36,198 nucleotides of DNA, taken from IMG/VR virus record IMGVR_UViG_2529292906_000018, one strand, 5' to 3'. The position numbers and the translations under genes were made by a program. Every line of letters begins with the position of its first letter. The first letter of the stretch is position 1. Of this stretch, positions 1 through 36,198 are shown piece after piece. The stretch comes from a virus (Duplodnaviria > Heunggongvirae > Uroviricota > Caudoviricetes). The notes beneath the pieces are model-generated. The model saw only the letters and a list, made by a program, of their open reading frames with translations. It did no database searches and had not been told where the DNA came from.

Positions 1-56
1 GGTATCCGTTCTGCTGAAGTGTCATGGCGTTGATTTTACGGTGACTCTTCGACAGT

Positions 57-82
57 GAAAAGAAAAAAGGCCGCAGAGCGGC
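57..82 (-). terminator. putative rho-independent terminator downstream of the 190..585 gene
   Basis: GGCCGC-aga-GCGGCC hairpin at 68-82; on the minus strand it is followed by a T-rich tract (plus 57-67 gaaaagaaaaaa). Confidence 0.4.
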
Positions 83-189
83 CATAAACACAAACAAAAA
101 TCAATAAGTTAGATAATTATCAAAGACTTACAGACACACAAAAACACAGCCAACCACAACAAATAACAGGGATGTGGTCACTTTGTGGA

Positions 190-585
190 TCATTCGCTCC
201 CCTCTTTTTCCTTATTTCGTTGAACGCCAATTGCGACACACGTACTAAGCAAATCTTTACATTTCTCTACATCTTCAGACTTACGCAATTTGATGCTTTT
301 TACAGACTGCGGGCTACTGTCCGTAGCACGATACATCGTTATTTCAATATCATTTCGGTCTAAGAGTCCCATAATGGCTTTTGCAACCTCCACACCCTTC
401 TTCGCGAAATCAAAGAACAGAGCAAGTTTATATGGATTTTCGACGGAAAAAACTTCAATTTTGCTAAAACCAACATCGTGTAGAGAAAAATATTGCTCAA
501 CCTCATCTCGAAGTTCTGGATCGCATACAATGTCTATTCTCCAGTACTGACCTAAATGCAAATCGCTATTAACTGTTTTTTCCAC
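190..585 (-). CDS. hypothetical protein (131 aa), cargo gene between prophage end and int
   Basis: ORF 190..606; GTG at 585 preceded by AAGGAGG (592-598) is the best start; no recognisable motif; lower GC than phage core. Confidence 0.5.
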   Translation of the reverse strand: MEKTVNSDLHLGQYWRIDIVCDPELRDEVEQYFSLHDVGFSKIEVFSVENPYKLALFFDFAKKGVEVAKAIMGLLDRNDIEITMYRATDSSPQSVKSIKLRKSEDVEKCKDLLSTCVAIGVQRNKEKEGSE

Positions 586-595
586 AACATCCTCC

Positions 596-1570
596 TTACC
601 CAGCAATAGGATTAAATCTCACCGCATCCTGCAAGTAATCCGGCGCAAGATGGGCATAAATCATCGTTGTCTGAATCTTTGCGTGCCCCAGAATTTTCTG
701 GAGCGTCAGAATATTGCCGCCGTTCATCATGAAATGACTGGCGAAGGTGTGGCGCAGCGCATGAACAGCCTGGCCGTCAGGAACATCAGGTGCGACCGTT
801 TTGATGACATCGCGAACCAATGGATAATCCAGCGTCGGAAACACCAGTTTCCCGCCCCGTTTTTTGATCTTTTCAAACAGGCTTTCAGAAATAGGAACGG
901 TACGGTTTTTGCTGTTCTTCGTTTTTGAAAAAGTGATTCGACAATGAAGAACACGGCGCTGCTCCAGTGCCGCTACCTCGCCCCATCGCGCCCCGGTCGA
1001 CAGAAGGATTTCGACAGCCAGCCGTTCATCGGGATTTTCAGCCAGTGCATCCAGCAACTGAACACATTCAGACTTACTCAGATATCCCATTTCGCGCTCG
1101 TTAACCTTCATTCCTTTAAGGCCTTGAACGGGGTTATCGTTAAGAAAATGGCCGGATGAGATGAGTGCGGTAAACATCGCGCTTAACGCCCCAATCTCTC
1201 GATTAATGGTGCTGGGCTGTATCCCCTGCTCTATCCTGGACACACGTAGCTCGGTGAGCATCGTTGTATTAAGTTTATGCACACACGGGTCATCCATTGC
1301 CTCACTCAAGCGCAGCAATTTAAGGCGCGTGTTATGCCCTGACTTCATTAGCTGGCCGTGGTATTTCCACCACAAGTCAATAAGCACCGACAGCGGACGG
1401 CGATCAATGGAGTTTCCTTTCCACTCATTGTTATGCTGTTGCGCCAGCACCCACCGCTCATATAAAACTGCATCCGATTTCGTTTTAAATTTTTTGCGAA
1501 TGCGTTTGCCTTTACGCCCCTCAGGGCGCATGTCAAGAAGATACCCTCCCGGAATTGATTTTATGCTCAT
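596..1570 (-). CDS. int: tyrosine-type site-specific integrase (P2 Int-like)
   Basis: ORF 596..1720; C-terminus HALRHTFASHFMMNGGNILTLQKILGHAKIQTTMIYAHL is the tyrosine-recombinase catalytic signature; ATG at 1570 (MSIKSIPGGY) chosen as start. Confidence 0.9.
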   Translation of the reverse strand: MSIKSIPGGYLLDMRPEGRKGKRIRKKFKTKSDAVLYERWVLAQQHNNEWKGNSIDRRPLSVLIDLWWKYHGQLMKSGHNTRLKLLRLSEAMDDPCVHKLNTTMLTELRVSRIEQGIQPSTINREIGALSAMFTALISSGHFLNDNPVQGLKGMKVNEREMGYLSKSECVQLLDALAENPDERLAVEILLSTGARWGEVAALEQRRVLHCRITFSKTKNSKNRTVPISESLFEKIKKRGGKLVFPTLDYPLVRDVIKTVAPDVPDGQAVHALRHTFASHFMMNGGNILTLQKILGHAKIQTTMIYAHLAPDYLQDAVRFNPIAG

Positions 1571-1619: not shown

Positions 1620-1928
1620 TTAACCGGGCTGTGTACCAGTCTTGCGGGATTTTTGAGAAGACGATGTGTTTTCTGGCCCATCAGGGGAGAGAGAGGGACT
1701 GATCTGCCCAGCAGCCTCATTTGTTTTTCCCGTCATAAGCCAATTCATGTACTTAAAAAAGCGAGGGTGATTAACAATCTTGATAAGCACTTCGCCCCCT
1801 ATGTTTTCAATCCGCCCCGTTTCATAACGACGCAAAGTGCCGATAGGCACATCAATCAGGCCGCAAAATTCTTCGCGCGTTAAATCCTCTGATTCACGAA
1901 TCACTCTAATTTTTTCACCGATAAGCAT
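1620..1928 (-). CDS. C: immunity repressor (P2 C-like)
   Basis: 102 aa ORF directly upstream of int on the same strand, divergent from the cox-like gene; resembles P2 C as recalled. Confidence 0.75.
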   Translation of the reverse strand: MLIGEKIRVIRESEDLTREEFCGLIDVPIGTLRRYETGRIENIGGEVLIKIVNHPRFFKYMNWLMTGKTNEAAGQISPSLSPDGPENTSSSQKSRKTGTQPG

Positions 1929-1940
1929 TGACAGTGTTCC

Positions 1941-1986
1941 TATAAGTACACTAAGCTTGCGCGCAAGGTGTACTTATAAGTACACC
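1941..1986. promoter_or_regulatory. lysis/lysogeny switch operator repeats in the C/cox intergenic region
   Basis: TATAAGTACAC at 1941-1951 and again at 1974-1984 (direct repeat, 33 bp apart), with inverted copy GTGTACTTATA at 1968-1978, between divergent C and cox-like starts. Confidence 0.5.
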
Positions 1987-2024
1987 AAGTCACAAACAAC
2001 CACAGATAGCGCAGGTTATCACAC

Positions 2025-8221: not shown

Positions 8222-8225
8222 ACCA

Positions 8226-8537
8226 ATGACGACACCAACCAGACGGATAAGTTTCTATCTGAAGCCTGCGGCCGTCAAGAACGAAAGCGAAGCATGCGCC
8301 TGGCTGGACAGCCTTACACCAGAAGCCCGCAAAAGCGGCCAACGCGTGGCTTTTCTGGCCGGGCTGGCACTTCTGAAAATGAATCCAGCAGAGGCTTACC
8401 GACTGGCTGCATGGGCTGACGATGAGGCGTTATCAGTGACACAAACCAGGACAGAATGCCCCGCGTCACAGCCAGTATCAACCGCACAGATAACCAGTCA
8501 GATGGCCGGAAATATCCGGGCGTTATTTCCCGAATAA
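8226..8537 (+). CDS. parR: ParR-like centromere-binding adaptor protein
   Basis: ATG 8226 with AAGGAG 7 nt upstream; RRISFYLKPAAV...AFLAGLALLKMNP resembles R1 ParR (RRTIAFKLNPDV...ALTAGLALYRQDP) as recalled; immediately downstream of parM. Confidence 0.7.
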   Translation: MTTPTRRISFYLKPAAVKNESEACAWLDSLTPEARKSGQRVAFLAGLALLKMNPAEAYRLAAWADDEALSVTQTRTECPASQPVSTAQITSQMAGNIRALFPE

Positions 8538-8543
8538 CACAAC

Positions 8544-8576
8544 ATCAGGGCGCATCCGCCCTGATGACTTTAATCC
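8544..8576 (+). terminator. weak putative terminator after parR
   Basis: Hairpin ATCAGGGCG-catc-CGCCCTGAT at 8544-8565 followed by gacTTTaaTcc. Confidence 0.3.
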
Positions 8577-8635
8577 GGGAACATAAACAAGGGGGACACA
8601 ATGCAACACATTGACAGAGAAAAAGGAAAAAAAGC

Positions 8636-9043
8636 ATGAACAGAAAACAGAAACAAGAGTTGAAATACTTCTTACGTAAAGAAATTGCCAGGCTTGAAGA
8701 TGCAGAGTCACAATCATCAGAAATTCCGTTCGGAATGGATATCAACGACGCCCGTATGCTTCAGGCATACCGTATAGCTCAGGCTGCACTACAGACAAAA
8801 CCGTTAAATAACATACATGAAAAGTATGATTATTTTACGGATACCGCTTGCTTGCTGACATCTGAAGAACAAAAGATAGCCCAACTTTTAGGCGACGCAT
8901 GGAACCTGTATTTAACATTGCCAGTTGAGCATCCAATGGGTAGAGATGAATTTTGCCGGGCAATTCATCATTGCCAAAATATGGTGTTGGCACGCCCGGC
9001 CATCAGGGCGTTGGCCAGGAAGGGGCAAGGCTATAAAAGATAA
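8636..9043 (+). CDS. hypothetical protein (135 aa), accessory gene in the slot where P2 carries tin/old
   Basis: ATG 8636 with AAAGGA upstream; AT-richer than phage core; followed by a strong terminator; no recognisable motif. Confidence 0.5.
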   Translation: MNRKQKQELKYFLRKEIARLEDAESQSSEIPFGMDINDARMLQAYRIAQAALQTKPLNNIHEKYDYFTDTACLLTSEEQKIAQLLGDAWNLYLTLPVEHPMGRDEFCRAIHHCQNMVLARPAIRALARKGQGYKR

Positions 9044-9046
9044 GTA

Positions 9047-9075
9047 AAACGCCCTCCTCCAGGGCGTTTATTTCA
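9047..9075 (+). terminator. rho-independent terminator
   Basis: AAACGCCCT-cctcc-AGGGCGTTT hairpin followed by ATTTC. Confidence 0.6.
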
Positions 9076-9076
9076 A

Positions 9077-9104
9077 TGCACAATAGTGCACAAATTTGCA
9101 CAAT
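9077..9104. repeat. three direct TGCACAA repeats at about 10-bp phasing (putative protein-binding site in cos-proximal region)
   Basis: tgcacaat (9077-9084), tgcacaaat (9087-9095), tgcacaat (9097-9104). Confidence 0.4.
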
Positions 9105-9173
9105 TTTTTTGAACGACTTTTTACCCTTCCGGCCCGCATGGCGGCTGGATCCGTCAAGGATCCGTGCGTGCAC

Positions 9174-9190
9174 AAAAAAACGCGTTTTTT
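9174..9190. repeat. near-perfect palindrome A7-CGCG-T6
   Basis: aaaaaaacgcgtttttt at 9174-9190. Confidence 0.4.
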
Positions 9191-9476
9191 CTGCGCGCAG
9201 GTGACGGGGGAACAGCCCGCGTTTCAGGGGGTAAATAGCATCCCCTGAACGATGTCGCAGCAACACAACAGAATGGCTGTATTTCTCACGCTGAGCGTGA
9301 AAAAAACGTGAGGGCTTTTGATTTGATGGGGTGAAAGGTAAGGCCGTCAAAATCGCACTGAGGCGGCGAGAACATGCAGTTAACGCGGTGGGATTGCGTA
9401 AGAATCTGACCGTCGATGATGGCAATAAGCAGGAAAGCGTCGTGAAATTATCTGACTGATACAGGAGCTGGAGAGT

Positions 9477-9502
9477 CGGGGCATAAATTTTTTATGCCCC
9501 GG
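9477..9502. other. strong palindrome/hairpin just 3' of portal gene (possible terminator or cos-associated element)
   Basis: CGGGGCATAAA-tttt-TTATGCCCCGG, stem of about 10 bp. Confidence 0.35.
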
Positions 9503-9527
9503 CGAAGCAGCAGACAAGCGAAGCGCG

Positions 9528-23021: not shown

Positions 23022-23468
23022 CTAAGCCGCCCTCACGATATAGTTAAATGCAATATTGCGGGGGCGGGTTTCACTACCACCTGTGTTACCAATACTTCCT
23101 CGTGAATGAAGCGTTGGTGATGGAATCAAACTCCCTCCTGTATTTGTGGCATCAAGCCCCCTGCCTTGTGTATATGTTTTTTTGAAAATCGTAGCCAACT
23201 CCCATTCATCTTTTGTGTCATATCCATCGTTAGCTACAACAATATGGCGGTGTTTTTCCAACATCCCGTTTTGAATGCTCAATAAAGCGCGTGCCGCATC
23301 AATTCCTCGCCCATCATCCCAGCCACGGATAAATTCGCCCCGTAAATCCGGTAATTTATTGGTGGGGTAGGCCTTTGCCAGATTGGGGTACATTTCAGAA
23401 GAAAATGCTGCGCCGTTACATTTCAGCCACCCCGTTGGCAGCGTGGCTGAGGGCCATGGAACGGGCAC
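23022..23468 (-). CDS. silent alternative tail-fibre C-terminal cassette 2 (promoterless, invertible)
   Basis: Begins with the H junction motif (V)PVPWPSATLPTGWLKCNGAAF and ends ETRPRNIAFNYIVRAA; listed start is an in-frame GTG, the frame continues into the crossover site. Confidence 0.6.
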   Translation of the reverse strand: MPVPWPSATLPTGWLKCNGAAFSSEMYPNLAKAYPTNKLPDLRGEFIRGWDDGRGIDAARALLSIQNGMLEKHRHIVVANDGYDTKDEWELATIFKKTYTQGRGLDATNTGGSLIPSPTLHSRGSIGNTGGSETRPRNIAFNYIVRAA

Positions 23469-23489
23469 ACCAACGGGCAGTGCAGAACC

Positions 23490-23515
23490 TTCTCCTAAAC
23501 CAACGTTTTCATGCG
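23490..23515 (-). other. invertase crossover site 2 (inverted relative to the H site)
   Basis: TTCTCCTAAACCAACGTTTTCATGCG; reverse complement shares GTTGGTTTAGGAGAA with the H-site half. Confidence 0.5.
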
Positions 23516-23982
23516 GCTCTTACGATGTAATTAAATGCAACGTTGCGAGGGCGAGTTTCTGTACCTACATTTCCACTAATTTCACCAAACCGTTTTACAT
23601 TACGAGAGCTAATGGCTCGTAGTGAGGAAGGCACCTTTAAACCGGGTTCGTCTGTTTTAACTATTCCCCCGTCCCCGTATGTAGCCAGTATTCCAGGGTT
23701 TACTCCTTCCCGTGTACTTCCCGCGGCAAGTCCATCCCCGGTCCATAATTCCATATAGTGTGCATGATCCAAAATTGTGTGTGGCTGCCAATTAAGCAAA
23801 GCGCGGCCAGCATCCACCCCGCGCCCATCATCCCAGCCACGAATAAATTCACCCCGTAAATCCGGTAATTTATTGGTGGGGTAGGCCTTTGCCAGATTGG
23901 GGTACATTTCAGAAGAAAATGCTGCGCCGTTACATTTCAGCCACCCCGTTGGCAGCGTGGCTGAGGACCATGGAACGGGCAC
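23509..23982 (-). CDS. silent alternative tail-fibre C-terminal cassette 3
   Basis: Same conserved N-terminal junction and C-terminal ETRPRNVAFNYIVRAA motif, different central segment. Confidence 0.6.
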   Translation of the reverse strand: MPVPWSSATLPTGWLKCNGAAFSSEMYPNLAKAYPTNKLPDLRGEFIRGWDDGRGVDAGRALLNWQPHTILDHAHYMELWTGDGLAAGSTREGVNPGILATYGDGGIVKTDEPGLKVPSSLRAISSRNVKRFGEISGNVGTETRPRNVAFNYIVRAA

Positions 23983-24003
23983 ACCAACGGGCAGCGCCGA
24001 GCC

Positions 24004-24029
24004 TTCTCCTAAACCAACGTTTTCATGCG
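24004..24029 (-). other. invertase crossover site 3
   Basis: Identical 26-mer TTCTCCTAAACCAACGTTTTCATGCG. Confidence 0.5.
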
Positions 24030-24232
24030 GCTCTTACGATGTAATTGAATGCAACGTTGCGGGGGCGTGTTTCTGCTGTGCCGACAATACTGGTACTCAG
24101 TCCTGTCGCTGTTCGTTTGTTATTTTTATTCCCTTCGATAAGACAGTTGTAATCGTCATTACCAATTAACGAGTTGGTGGCATCAATACTGTCCGGGGAC
24201 AAGGCATTAGTTGTGGAACTTAAAGTCAGCAT
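24023..24232 (-). CDS. alternative tail-fibre cassette 4, distal segment (after -1 frame change)
   Basis: Ends AETRPRNVAFNYIVRAA; frame is open upstream to 24298; joins the 24256..24612 ORF if the A6 run at plus 24289-24294 is read one base longer. Confidence 0.5.
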   Translation of the reverse strand: MLTLSSTTNALSPDSIDATNSLIGNDDYNCLIEGNKNNKRTATGLSTSIVGTAETRPRNVAFNYIVRAA

Positions 24233-24255
24233 CTCGTCTGAACTTGGAAGATTTT

Positions 24256-24612
24256 TTAATGGGGTTTCATTACGTGAAATACCCGCATAAAAAAGGACTC
24301 ATGCCTGTGCGCTTCAAAGGAGTCATCCTGAAGACTTAGCAAGGCACGCCCAGCATCCAAGCCACGTCCATCATCCCAGCCACGGATAAATTCACCCCGT
24401 AGATCCGGTAATTTATTCGCGGGGTAAGCCTGTGCCAGTTTGGGGTAATCTTCAGAAGAAAATGCTGCGCCGTTACATTTCAGCCAGCCCGTTGGCGGTG
24501 TAGCTGAGGGCCACGGAACGGGTACACCAACGGGCAACGCAGAGCCTTCCCCCAAACCAACGTTTTCGTCTTTATCCCTACCTATACCAACTATGTATTT
24601 TTCACGAAACAA
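24256..24612 (-). CDS. alternative tail-fibre cassette 4, proximal segment
   Basis: Contains GLGEGSALPVGVPVPWPSATPPTGWLKCNGAAFSSEDYPKLAQAYPANKLPDLRGEFIRGWDDGRG, then runs out of frame. Confidence 0.5.
   Translation of the reverse strand: MFREKYIVGIGRDKDENVGLGEGSALPVGVPVPWPSATPPTGWLKCNGAAFSSEDYPKLAQAYPANKLPDLRGEFIRGWDDGRGLDAGRALLSLQDDSFEAHRHESFFMRVFHVMKPH
24547..24572 (-). other. invertase crossover site 4, adjacent to the invertase gene
   Basis: TTCCCCCAAACCAACGTTTTCGTCTT, a variant of sites 2 and 3. Confidence 0.45.
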
Positions 24613-24626
24613 AGAGGATGTTTTTT

Positions 24627-25226
24627 ATGCAAATTGGCTATATTCGTGTGTCAACAAATGACCAGAACACGGATTTACAACGCAATGCACTGAACTGCGC
24701 AGGATGTGAACTGATTTTTGAAGATAAAATCAGCGGAACGAAATCAGCCAGACCGGGATTGAAAAAACTGCTCAGAACGCTATCAGAAGGAGATACGCTG
24801 GTTGTCTGGAAGCTGGACAGACTGGGCAGAAGTATGAAACACCTGATCACGCTTATTGAGGAATTGCGGGAAAAAGGTGTTAATTTCCGTAGTCTGACGG
24901 ACAGCATTGACACATCAACACCCATGGGGCGTTTCTTTTTTCACGTCATGGGGGCTTTAGCCGAAATGGAACGTGAATTAATTGTAGAACGTACACTGGC
25001 CGGGCTGGCAGCAGCACGCGCACAAGGACGCATTGGCGGACGTCGCCCGAAGTTGACAAAAGAACAACACGAGCAAATAGCGAGGCTGATTAAAAACGGT
25101 CATGACAGGAAACAACTGGCGATCATTTACGACATCGGCATATCGACGATTTATCGTTATCACCCTGTAGGCGATATACAGGCTGAAGAAACAACCAGGC
25201 AGACTCAGGAAAATGAAAACCGCTAA
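24627..25226 (+). CDS. serine DNA invertase (Hin/Gin/Cin/Pin family)
   Basis: MQIGYIRVSTNDQNTDLQRNAL...GDTLVVWKLDRLGRSMKHL...FRSLTDSIDTSTPMGRFFFHVMGALAEMERELI is near-identical in pattern to Gin/Hin as recalled; ATG 24627 within ORF 24618..25226. Confidence 0.9.
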   Translation: MQIGYIRVSTNDQNTDLQRNALNCAGCELIFEDKISGTKSARPGLKKLLRTLSEGDTLVVWKLDRLGRSMKHLITLIEELREKGVNFRSLTDSIDTSTPMGRFFFHVMGALAEMERELIVERTLAGLAAARAQGRIGGRRPKLTKEQHEQIARLIKNGHDRKQLAIIYDIGISTIYRYHPVGDIQAEETTRQTQENENR

Positions 25227-32352: not shown

Positions 32353-33300
32353 ATGATTGGACAATTTTTAAGTGCAACAGAGATTTTAGCAAAGAACTAT
32401 GTTCGTAATAAAATGGTTAAAAATCCATTTTATTCGAATTTAAAATGGAATTTTATTGAAAAAAACATCATAAGATTAACATCCTCACCGGTTAAATCAG
32501 TACTTTGCATATCAGCTTTTTCATTTGTACTACTTTATGTTGGATATTTAAACGAATTATTTATAAAAAATAATCTTTTACATTATTTCCCGTTTAGGCA
32601 TTCATTAACCGAATGGCAAACAACCATTTTAAGTGGCCAATTGACAATTATTGGTATTGTATACCCCCTTGTTATAGGTTTAGTAAGTGTCTTATTCCAA
32701 AAAAAGGCAGATAGAAAAATAGCCCAAACTGCTTATCAGCGTTACTCAGGATTCATGCTTGCTGGACTCAGCGGGCTTTTCTTATCAGGATTTATACTTC
32801 TCAGTGTACTAATTAAAACTGTCTTTGGAAGTTATCTTTATGGTATAGCTTGTCTAATCAGCATATTATGGCTTTTGATAAACATAGTTCTTTCTATTTG
32901 GTTCTTTATCGTGAGTCTTGAAATTCTTGATGATGTAAAACGGCAAATAATTATAAAGCGATACATTGCCTTCGAAATAGTAATGCCCCATATTTGTAAC
33001 AAAATCTCAGCCAAGCTTAGGTTATACCCTATCTATCAAAAACATAACTATTCAAATTTAGAAATCAAGCAAGCCGATTACAAAGGAGAATACATATCTG
33101 TGGCTAGCGGTTATTCTAAGGAAGATGAGTTAAGTTTATATCACCGTCCTTTTCAACTTACTCTTAATCTTATTAATTGCCAACTAAAAAGAAGAATCAT
33201 TTTGCGTCATTTGTCATTGGTGATAATCGTGCAAAAGAAACAGAATCCACGGGTAAGATACTTTTTAGCGTTAAAAATATCAAACCAGACAGCTTATTAA
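32353..33300 (+). CDS. hypothetical polytopic membrane protein (about 4 TM helices), AT-rich island gene 1
   Basis: 315 aa ORF; hydrophobic stretches VLCISAFSFVLLYVGYL, LTIIGIVYPLVIGLVSVLF, FMLAGLSGLFLSGFILLSVLI, LYGIACLISILWLLINIVLSIWFFIVSL; very AT-rich codon usage. Confidence 0.55.
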   Translation: MIGQFLSATEILAKNYVRNKMVKNPFYSNLKWNFIEKNIIRLTSSPVKSVLCISAFSFVLLYVGYLNELFIKNNLLHYFPFRHSLTEWQTTILSGQLTIIGIVYPLVIGLVSVLFQKKADRKIAQTAYQRYSGFMLAGLSGLFLSGFILLSVLIKTVFGSYLYGIACLISILWLLINIVLSIWFFIVSLEILDDVKRQIIIKRYIAFEIVMPHICNKISAKLRLYPIYQKHNYSNLEIKQADYKGEYISVASGYSKEDELSLYHRPFQLTLNLINCQLKRRIILRHLSLVIIVQKKQNPRVRYFLALKISNQTAY

Positions 33301-35471
33301 TAAAAATACTTAAGCAATGTTTTTATAGGGCTCCGATTAAAGGAGGAGATTTTTCCGTAAGTCTTACAATGCAGGCTATAACAGCAGATACGTATATGTA
33401 TCTGCGGGATTCTGATCTCATTAGTTTTGACGATGCTATCTCTGCATTAATTAATAACTTTAATAATCTCTGCGATTTGTATTTTTTTCAAGATGATAAT
33501 ACCAACAATAACTTCTTACTGATCACTACAGAATTATTTGAACGGAGTTTTCAATATGAGTTTTCAGATGAAGTTTATAAAATATCAAATAATTCCATGG
33601 ATAAAATTAATCTTTCTGAAAGATTTTTTGAATTATGTCTTTGGAGCGGAGTGCGTATTATCAATAATAGAAAACATCTTATCAGCAATGAACTTTGTAT
33701 CTATATGGGAATTACTCGTTCACAATGGTCAATATTAACAGAATGGTTCCGAAACAACCAATCACTCTTAAATGCCTCGCTTCGTTCACGTTATAATCGT
33801 ATATTAAGAACCTATACCACTGTTTGGGAGCAATATCAAGAAAGCATAAACTTTCGTTTCTGCAATACAGAGAATTCAGATTTATTTGAATTATTTTGCA
33901 AAACGCAACTACAAGAACTTCCATCGATGATTATTGATGCAACACAGACTCGCGATCCTTCTACTATTGATACAGCCGTCGATCTTATTAACCGATGGCA
34001 GCACTCAATGAATATTGACAGCCATTCGGTAGAAAAATACAGTTACAAAGGCCAGCTTTTTAACCCGGGTTTTTTCATATCCAAAAAACTAAACTTCAAT
34101 TCAGACAGAGAGTGGTTCAATATTGCCATCATAAATGCGTTGACTGACATGCGTATATGCACATGTCTTTATCTGACATCAAGAATCAATACTTCTGACA
34201 AACTAATGACACATTACATTAAACTTATTTTAGAGGGTAAACTTATTGACCAAACCGGTGGATATGAAACTCCCACTGAAGAAATTGATAATGCAAGCCA
34301 ACTAATCAAGATATTAATTAGAATCTGCCTGTGGACATGGTCTGAAAATATGGAGCATAATGGGTGGATGAATAGTTTAGCAAGGCGTTTACGTGACTAT
34401 GATAAAACAGACATGGTGATGGGCAGAGTTTACAGTAATGTTTTTGACTGTGGATTTATTGATATGGAACAATCATGGGTTCAGCTATTATTAATTTTTT
34501 CTAACAAGAACGATAGCGTATCAAAAGAAATAAAAGAAGCAATAGAAAACAACTATATAACATATCGTGAGAAGCAACGACTCATTGGAGTATTATCAAA
34601 AATTTGTAACTCCATCGAATACACTAAAATCAAGCTGACTTTAACATTGGACGATCTCCAAACAAAAAAAGAAAACTTAAGAAAGTTGCTTCAAGAGCAT
34701 ATTAACATGCTAAAGAAAGATCTTGATATGAGACTTCAGGATGCTGCCATAGATGTACATCGACTAGATAGCACTGCACGTAAAACATCAGAACATCTTC
34801 GTAAACGCATCAAGAAAACGCTCCCTCTTTCACTTTTCAAATCTATTGATTTTAAGCAGGCTAGCGATTGTTTCACAAAACATAAGATATCTATTAAGAT
34901 AGATAAAGAACCGTATGCCGAAGGAATAGAATCCATCCCTTATATCAATGAAGGTGATATTCAAGCAGACTTAATTCTCAAGGACATCCAGAGAATAATA
35001 CTTTCAAATTTATTTAGCACTGGCTGTTCGCAACATACCGTAATAGAAGATTTCAATATGTTGATTGATCACATAAAATCATCTGCTGACTTGGCTGGCA
35101 AACTGGTTCTTGTGATGAGTAAAGAGATCTTTCAGCAATATAATCGTATGCTTTTCGATAATCCCAACCTCAGAGAACTAATGAGAAAAAATGATGATGG
35201 CTCTATGAACATAACTACTGAATCCGGTACCTGTAAGGTTTACTTCTTACCATTTGTTAATCAACCATTTTCTCTTGTGGTAAAGGATAACTACTTCACT
35301 AAATTAATTATTAGAGAATATGATAATAATAAGTTAGTAAATGTCACTTCAGAGAATATCAAAAGTGACTCAGATAAATTCAAGCTAACTCTTAACTATG
35401 AGTTGAATATAGTATTTGAAGGAAACGCTGATTTAAAAATAGCTCACTCGCAAAGAGTGACATCAGAATAA
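33177..35471 (+). CDS. hypothetical large protein (about 760 aa), AT-rich island gene 2; probably continuous with gene 1
   Basis: Long ORF overlapping gene 1 by 124 nt in the -1 frame; listed start is TTG with no SD; reading the A5 run at 33186-33190 as A6 fuses the two into about 1040 aa; no recognisable catalytic motif. Confidence 0.55.
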   Translation: MPTKKKNHFASFVIGDNRAKETESTGKILFSVKNIKPDSLLIKILKQCFYRAPIKGGDFSVSLTMQAITADTYMYLRDSDLISFDDAISALINNFNNLCDLYFFQDDNTNNNFLLITTELFERSFQYEFSDEVYKISNNSMDKINLSERFFELCLWSGVRIINNRKHLISNELCIYMGITRSQWSILTEWFRNNQSLLNASLRSRYNRILRTYTTVWEQYQESINFRFCNTENSDLFELFCKTQLQELPSMIIDATQTRDPSTIDTAVDLINRWQHSMNIDSHSVEKYSYKGQLFNPGFFISKKLNFNSDREWFNIAIINALTDMRICTCLYLTSRINTSDKLMTHYIKLILEGKLIDQTGGYETPTEEIDNASQLIKILIRICLWTWSENMEHNGWMNSLARRLRDYDKTDMVMGRVYSNVFDCGFIDMEQSWVQLLLIFSNKNDSVSKEIKEAIENNYITYREKQRLIGVLSKICNSIEYTKIKLTLTLDDLQTKKENLRKLLQEHINMLKKDLDMRLQDAAIDVHRLDSTARKTSEHLRKRIKKTLPLSLFKSIDFKQASDCFTKHKISIKIDKEPYAEGIESIPYINEGDIQADLILKDIQRIILSNLFSTGCSQHTVIEDFNMLIDHIKSSADLAGKLVLVMSKEIFQQYNRMLFDNPNLRELMRKNDDGSMNITTESGTCKVYFLPFVNQPFSLVVKDNYFTKLIIREYDNNKLVNVTSENIKSDSDKFKLTLNYELNIVFEGNADLKIAHSQRVTSE

Positions 35472-36057: not shown

Positions 36058-36198
36058 ATGTCGCAAAAATCGCTTACGGCCATCACGTTCTGCGTGACGG
36101 CAATCCTCATCATCTGGATGCTGCACGGTTCGCTGTGCGAAATACGGATGAGCTTCTGGGGAGCGGAGTTTGCGGCGTTCTTACAGTGTAAGCAGTAA
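36058..36198 (+). CDS. Hok/Gef-family type I toxin-like small membrane peptide (46 aa)
   Basis: MSQKSLTAITFCVTAILIIWMLHGSLCEIR...AAFLQCKQ has the Hok-family hydrophobic helix plus SLCEIR and AAFL motifs; AAGGAG SD; complete with TAA at window end. Confidence 0.65.
   Translation: MSQKSLTAITFCVTAILIIWMLHGSLCEIRMSFWGAEFAAFLQCKQ

Follow-up and report, generated by a model that had tools for sequence, protein, structure and literature searches.

The classical accessory loci of phage P2 are the gpA-gpQ interval, which carries old and tin, and the tail-gene region. In lysogens of phage lambda, rexA and rexB are co-transcribed with cI from PRM, and they exclude T4 rII. The ctx cytotoxin gene of phiCTX, a P2-like phage of Pseudomonas, reportedly adjoins attP-int. 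More recently, gpA-gpQ was described as a defence hotspot of P2-like phages, and the general principle is thereby established (Rousset et al., 2022; PMC9122126). According to a 2026 survey, the int-att interval is a minor hotspot that holds 3% of the defence systems in P2-like prophages; the same survey cites att-int defence genes of PICI satellites (NAR 2026; PMC13586616).

We analysed a stretch of 36,198 nucleotides (IMG/VR record IMGVR_UViG_2529292906_000018), hereafter the window, which is a P2-like (Peduovirinae) prophage inserted between btuC and ihfA in E. coli. The gene under study, orf131, lies between int and attL. Like old, tin and Z/fun of P2 and the genes of the gpA-gpQ hotspot, orf131 is accessory, AT-rich, strain-variable and dispensable for the phage cycle, and it occupies a slot in which unrelated cassettes alternate. 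Unlike old, tin and Z/fun, it is located at int-att instead of gpA-gpQ or the tail genes, shares no sequence or domain similarity with them and lacks a promoter of its own, and an anti-phage role for it is hypothetical. Its position, from the integrase gene to the att site, where cargo is mobilised with the element, is an exact match to the int-att hotspot of the survey (host DNA to window 83, orf131 at 190-585, int at 596-1570). That hotspot was defined by recognised defence systems, however, and PADLOC recognises orf131 as none of them. Like rexA/rexB, orf131 would be a passenger cistron of a repressor operon, made only in the lysogenic mode, but it encodes a single soluble protein with no homology to that two-protein membrane system. 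Like ctx, it is foreign low-GC cargo right beside the attP of a P2-like phage, a placement that fits capture through imprecise excision; unlike ctx, which encodes a secreted pore-forming toxin and has its own regulation, its product is cytoplasmic and unrelated. The gene belongs to phrog_14142, a family with no assigned function, so membership explains no role. Its RefSeq accession, WP_000416304.1, was not found in published full texts or in the text-form DefensePredictor supplements, and the searched text of PMC13586616 does not describe the family. orf131 is thus far uncharacterised and belongs to a kind already known: prophage accessory cargo in a documented minor hotspot.

The first 2.4 kb of the window are 99.96% identical to E. 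coli O127:H6 E2348/69. Beyond this left end the window is a mosaic relative, and its right end is best matched by CP136025 (99.0%). The features at the left end are as follows.

56..83, no strand: att core at attL; this core is the intrinsic terminator of the host gene ihfA (genome matches; terminator scan)
84..189, minus strand: phage arm of attL, 33% GC, carrying TCCACAAAGTGACCACAT
190..585, minus strand: orf131, 131 codons, GTG start at 585, TGA stop at 192-190
194..608, minus strand: swappable cargo cassette, 415 bp (blastn breakpoints; junction sequences)
591..597, minus strand: Shine-Dalgarno AAGGAGG of orf131, 5 nt before the GTG
596..1570, minus strand: int, P2-type tyrosine integrase, the cistron upstream of orf131 (Pfam Int_N and Phage_integrase; RefSeq annotation)
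1620..1928, minus strand: C-type helix-turn-helix immunity repressor (Pfam HTH_3/HTH_31; annotation)
1929..2024, no strand: immunity switch region between C and a cox-like gene (TATAAGTACAC repeats)

The first-pass annotation of this DNA had placed a 131-aa gene with a strong ribosome-binding site and an AT-richer composition next to int at the left end of the prophage, and the three points were borne out. RefSeq has the identical CDS in E. coli E2348/69 (WP_000416304.1, 'hypothetical protein'). At the nucleotide level, the copies in E2348/69 and O104:H4 are 98.7-100% identical. The start codon is supported by the phrog_14142 profile, whose alignment begins exactly there, and the equivalent codon is ATG in the Salmonella homologue. 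The first two A's of the Shine-Dalgarno sequence belong to the int stop codon TAA (598..596; junction TAAGGAGGATGTTGTG), and the gap of 10 nt between int and orf131 is kept in homologues of 61% and 77% identity. The GC content of orf131 is 39.4%, compared with 49.4% for int and 51.5% for the whole window, and its GC3 is 34.8%, compared with 53.8% for int. This composition is foreign, and the gene was probably acquired horizontally. The dN/dS ratio is 0.19-0.23 against the 77% and 61% identical homologues, and 0.04-0.13 among more distant homologue pairs. Length, start position and ribosome-binding site are conserved among the homologues, and of the 159 E. coli genomes with the gene, practically all have an intact copy. 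These data show that orf131 is a real gene under purifying selection.

The phage arm was found in 299 of 5,426 complete E. coli genomes, and 159 of these 299 carry orf131 (2.9% of the 5,426). Prophages that occupy this att site but carry other cargo share 98% identity with the window at positions 1-193 and 604/609-1742 and no similarity in between (blastn). The conserved flanks with nothing in common between them delimit the cassette as 194-608; it contains orf131, its ribosome-binding site, the last four int codons and the int stop codon. Two other kinds of cargo occupy the slot in E. coli.

int-att slot: unrelated two-gene cassette (145 and 120 aa), 86 of 5,426 complete genomes
int-att slot: DUF1640/CCDC90-like plus 166-aa cassette, 39 of 5,426 genomes, 23 of them full-length

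An additional variant of the DUF1640-type cassette was also seen. The proteins of the alternative cassettes were considered as distant relatives of orf131 and rejected (hhalign probability <1%). These cassettes start within 2 nt of the int stop codon or overlap int. All cargo at this site thus appears to be appended to int without a promoter. The int-orf131 module is 99% identical in E. coli 1303, yet the C gene there differs, and E2348/69 differs from the window at the gpA-gpQ and gpD-ogr cargo loci. These two comparisons indicate that orf131 travels independently of immunity type and backbone. In addition, the same Int (98% identical) and att site work with unrelated cargo or with none, suggesting that orf131 benefits the host or the phage and not the integration machinery. 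Taken from the junctions, orf131 is a discrete cassette that alternates with unrelated cassettes at one position, and the earlier reading of the gene as cargo in the int-proximal slot of a P2-like prophage is supported. That this slot often carries morons holds in part: the hotspot exists, although it is only a minor one, with 3% of the defence systems.

A terminator at 57-82 had been assigned to orf131 itself in the first-pass annotation; it turned out to belong to the host. On the minus strand, a 6-bp all-G:C hairpin at 83..69 is followed by TTTTTTCTTT (terminator scan); the hairpin sequence GGCCGCAGAGCGGCC occupies 69-83 and the T-run 68-59. Window 1-83 is matched in 5,426 of 5,426 complete E. 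coli genomes, whether they carry the prophage or not, and about 27 nt, tgaaa(a)gaaaaaaggccgcagagcggcc, are repeated at the other prophage end beside ihfA (L002 30095-30122). Therefore, the terminator is that of ihfA and is also the att core. Phage DNA begins at window 84. The att-core hairpin is the sole terminator downstream of orf131, and it would end the int-orf131 transcript. In the phage arm, TCCACAAAGTGACCACAT at 189..172 (minus strand) abuts the orf131 stop codon, and a direct repeat of the type TCCACA-N6-CCAC lies beside the att core in every related prophage examined. Based on position and conservation, we infer that the TCCACAAAGTGACCACAT-type repeat is an Int arm-binding site. Its placement agrees with known features of P2 Int arm sites. 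On the host side of the att-core terminator, upstream of btuC, a promoter-like TTTTCA-17-TAAAAT is located at window 33-61 (minus strand). This site is presumably the btuC promoter, and read-through out of the prophage int operon would run into btuCED there.

The minus strand showed no terminator-like site between 1928 and 190, and a consensus scan, which is weak evidence, found neither a promoter-like nor a terminator-like site between int and orf131. TATAAGTACAC is present twice between C and the cox-like gene, at 1941 and 1975, 34 bp apart (span 1941-1985), and the two copies are probably C operator half-sites of the immunity switch. The repressor promoter Pc is presumed to lie in 1929..2024, where the consensus scan did not detect it, and C is presumed to be the first cistron of a C-int-orf131 lysogenic operon. 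We propose that orf131 would be an acquired, promoter-less cargo cistron placed between the 3' end of int and the Int arm-binding sites of attP/attL, and that Pc would drive a C-int-orf131 message in which it is the third cistron. Transcription from Pc would tie the production of orf131 to the lysogenic mode, as that of rexAB is tied to cI. We consider it highly likely that orf131 is a cargo cassette in the lysogenic operon. The earlier term moron fits it in part: orf131 is a variable insertion of deviant composition between conserved flanks, but it has neither its own promoter nor its own terminator. Because the terminator is that of ihfA and no promoter was detected, orf131 would not be an autonomous moron in the strict definition but a cistron appended to the C-int operon.

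The orf131 product has 131 residues, a mass of 15.0 kDa and a pI of 5.15; it is soluble and lacks a signal peptide and membrane segments (maximum hydropathy 0.99). An AlphaFold2 model built with 43 sequences has a pLDDT of 81.6 and a pTM of 0.75, compared with a pLDDT of 74.9 for an earlier model, and the predicted order of elements is b-a-b-b-a-b-b-a-b. The product is predicted to be an acidic, cytoplasmic alpha/beta protein, and no catalytic domain is recognisable in it. Near-invariant residues in the family include H10, C21, C45, C109, D/E59, R77, D79, E81, E83, K99, R101 and D105. Their conservation suggests that C21, C45 and C109 together with H10 form a putative Cys3-His metal site. The protein is a full-length member of phrog_14142 in PHROGs v4 (E = 8.6e-70; profile positions 1-128 of 128), for which the query was a 138-aa upstream-extended translation (window 190-606) with residues 8-135 aligned.

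A function had not been recognisable by eye, and the searches led to the same result. In Pfam, NCBIfam and PADLOC there was nothing above noise for the orf131 protein or for 43 family members; Pfam and NCBIfam gave no match to these 43 even at E <= 10, and no defence-protein family of PADLOC-DB 2.0 (2023 library) matched orf131 at E <= 1. The sole hit of a PDB sequence profile search was a ferritin at E 0.47. Foldseek searches against the PDB (both models) and BFVD (first model) had best E values of 0.03-0.1 and TM <= 0.42 among the listed matches. These included superantigen-like beta-grasp, ubiquitin-like and MutS-fragment matches, which were judged to be noise. No homology to a core phage function, the finding that would have spoken against the cargo reading, was detected in the profile and structure searches.

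Some distant members carry database labels: 'RuvC family protein' (RefSeq WP_236294062.1, L060 3000-3386) and 'PDDEXK family nuclease' (ENA entry CAM7602060.1, P0100). The core of PD-(D/E)xK nucleases is alpha-beta-beta-beta-alpha-beta, and the RNase H-like/RuvC fold is beta-beta-beta-alpha-beta-alpha-beta. A PD-(D/E)xK nuclease was rejected for orf131: Pfam, NCBIfam and PDB-sequence searches fail to reproduce the label, no nuclease is among the 50 best Foldseek PDB matches (best E 0.1; TM <= 0.36), and in the D79/E81/E83...K99 pattern the acidic residue that (D/E)xK calls for is missing. Similarly, RuvC was rejected because there is no Pfam, NCBIfam, PDB-sequence or Foldseek match to it and the predicted order of elements does not fit. 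Both labels may be annotation artefacts.

The phrog_14142 family is a small orphan family confined to P2-like prophages of Enterobacterales. Among 5.8 billion proteins it forms 69 clusters, none from outside Enterobacterales (Escherichia, Salmonella, Citrobacter, Enterobacter, Klebsiella, Raoultella, Yokenella, Kosakonia, Yersinia, Pectobacterium and Symbiopectobacterium). When 1.84 billion representatives at 50% identity were searched exhaustively with a profile, only 11 relatives reached E < 1e-10; a few weaker long matches were repeat proteins and were discarded. The family is carried by 2 of 185,579 species-representative genomes (genome contig scan), and tblastn against 50,697 sequenced phage records gave no match for either of its two subfamilies. 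orf131 is a rare, strain-variable prophage gene.

The two subfamilies differ in their position around attP. Members of subfamily A, which are at least 60% identical to the window protein, lie directly after int in all 27 loci examined. Members of subfamily B (about 30-38% identity) are never directly after int and are found at the opposite prophage end, in the order host gene, att-core hairpin, Int arm repeats, second terminator-like hairpin, gene, and a convergent hok or ogr. All family members share the ogr-attP-int interval and the orientation of int, before or after attP, and the family occurs in two Peduovirinae lineages with different tail modules. A second hairpin was found in every subfamily-B prophage; examples between the arm repeats and the start codon are at 5959-5985 in L007, 5952-5977 in L012, 5835-5864 in L009 and 2922-2953 in L060. 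No sigma-70-like promoter was found downstream of the hairpin, ahead of the subfamily-B genes. The hairpin and the missing promoter do not fit simple constitutive lysogenic expression across the whole family. Expression of subfamily B could come from host read-through, or from transcription across attP in the circular form.

Two other small elements are located in the same interval. A Hok/Gef-family toxin gene (window 36058-36198, plus strand) closes the window just inside attR, and in the circular phage this gene and orf131 are convergent across attP. Rfam gave no match in the window, and no Sok-type RNA was found. In Yersinia enterocolitica, an element of about 890 bp (L010 4850-5760) that encodes an 82-aa protein and a PemK-family toxin is in tandem with a P2-like prophage and is flanked by att core repeats, AAAAAAGCGCCGCGAGG. 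The presence of this toxin-antitoxin element between att core repeats confirms the location of the att core.

For the function of orf131, we propose that the protein would protect the lysogen against other phages or satellites, by superinfection exclusion or defence, and would act by binding a target and not through a known enzymatic activity. This role is favoured by the int-att defence hotspot, by the principle established for gpA-gpQ, and by the hok/gef and PemK pair in the same interval. Our confidence in it is low because there is no defence-related similarity: a conflict between phages as the business of this small, lysogen-expressed binding protein is possible but short of an even chance. 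A small single-domain protein with no effector domain would be atypical as a stand-alone defence system, and the family is absent from the 50,697 phage records and matches no known defence protein. The explanation as a whole, lysogenic-operon cargo together with the guess at a conflict function, comes close to an even chance and falls slightly below it. It is rather unlikely that the family is something more novel, namely a new exclusion family of single proteins that are expressed in lysogeny and act against phages or satellites, with an alpha/beta fold that has no solved or predicted viral relative, a Cys3-His metal site, and members that straddle attP so that expression of one subfamily is set by the integrated or circular state.

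Other readings start from the same locus. The position in the operon would equally suit a lysogenic-conversion factor that is expressed with the repressor and alters host physiology or fitness (stress, metabolism or colonisation). Strong purifying selection keeps homologues intact in many genomes of Salmonella, Klebsiella, Citrobacter and Enterobacter, individual sequences recur unchanged on 500 to >1,000 contigs, and the Cys3-His signature would suit a small redox- or metal-sensing protein. However, the protein lacks both a signal peptide and a membrane segment, the known virulence and metabolic families do not match it, and a gene in 2.9% of E. coli and in only 2 of 185,579 species-representative genomes is rare and strain-variable; we regard this role as unlikely. 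An equally unlikely candidate is a partner of the int-attP module that acts at infection or excision, as a recombination accessory, junction-processing, establishment or anti-defence protein. In favour of such a partner, the family always adjoins the Int arm-binding repeats and follows int in the circular map, on both sides of attP and in the two Peduovirinae lineages; the conserved acidic and basic residues (D/E59, R77, D79, E81, E83, K99 and R101) are compatible with it, and the 'PDDEXK' and 'RuvC' labels point to a junction nuclease. It is weakened by the 98% identical integrase and att site that work with unrelated or no cargo, and most P2-like phages lack the family. Furthermore, searches of Pfam, NCBIfam and PDB sequences and with Foldseek did not recover the nuclease labels, the predicted order of strands and helices is neither RNase H-like nor canonical PD-(D/E)xK, and accessory proteins that bind DNA do not usually have a pI as acidic as 5.15.

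The toxin genes nearby raise the question of whether orf131 itself stabilises the prophage as a selfish addiction or toxin-like element, like its neighbour: hok/gef lies just across attP in the window and adjoins homologues elsewhere, and the PemK toxin-antitoxin element is in tandem at the same att site in Yersinia. We judge this to be very improbable. The gene is a single cistron for which no partner ORF or antisense RNA was detected, and thus does not have the two-component organisation of a toxin-antitoxin system; no toxin or antitoxin family was matched in Pfam or PADLOC; and an unneutralised toxin that was constitutively co-expressed with the repressor would kill the cell. Least probable is that orf131 is spurious or has no function and is simply an open frame in AT-rich att-arm DNA. 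This reading could draw on the low GC content and on the lack of functional annotation anywhere, but the dN/dS ratio is well below 1 across homologues of 30-78% identity, the length, start and ribosome-binding site are conserved, the model reaches a pLDDT of 81.6 and a pTM of 0.75, and the phrog match is full-length. The dN/dS ratio, the conservation and the AlphaFold model effectively refute it.

Returning to the proposed lysogenic-operon cargo with an anti-phage action, such an action, if true, would extend the defence repertoire by a very small, domain-less effector and would give experimental weight to the little-studied int-att slot as a cargo hotspot of P2-like phages. The precise boundaries of the cassette, at the 3' end of int and at the Int arm-site repeat, illustrate how promoter-less genes are plugged into a lysogenic operon. 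One family on both sides of attP also offers a natural test of whether the integration state controls the expression of att-proximal cargo. Otherwise, orf131 is one more orphan prophage gene.

Other variable regions were observed in the window. A very AT-rich stretch (32.9% GC) at 32353-35471 (plus strand) lies between gpD and ogr. In CP136025 this cargo is an intact 1039-aa ORF labelled 'MFS transporter', and a 1-nt indel in the window splits it into ORFs of 315 and 764 aa, neither of which had a Pfam or PADLOC match. Relatives have DUF3800, PIN, GmrSD or a 221-aa hypothetical protein in the gpD-ogr slot, and these varied genes indicate that it is another variable cargo locus. The gpA/ParM-gpQ hotspot (8222-9527) is short in the window and holds only small ORFs (135 and 140 aa, no family matches); E2348/69 has an AAA ATPase and an S8 peptidase there. 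Finally, three 278-nt direct repeats (100%, 94% and 75% identity) at 23284-25226 adjoin a 202-aa ORF whose counterpart in E2348/69 is annotated as recombinase-family (invertase-like). With this annotation and the repeats, the region looks like one for host-range switching of the tail fibre.
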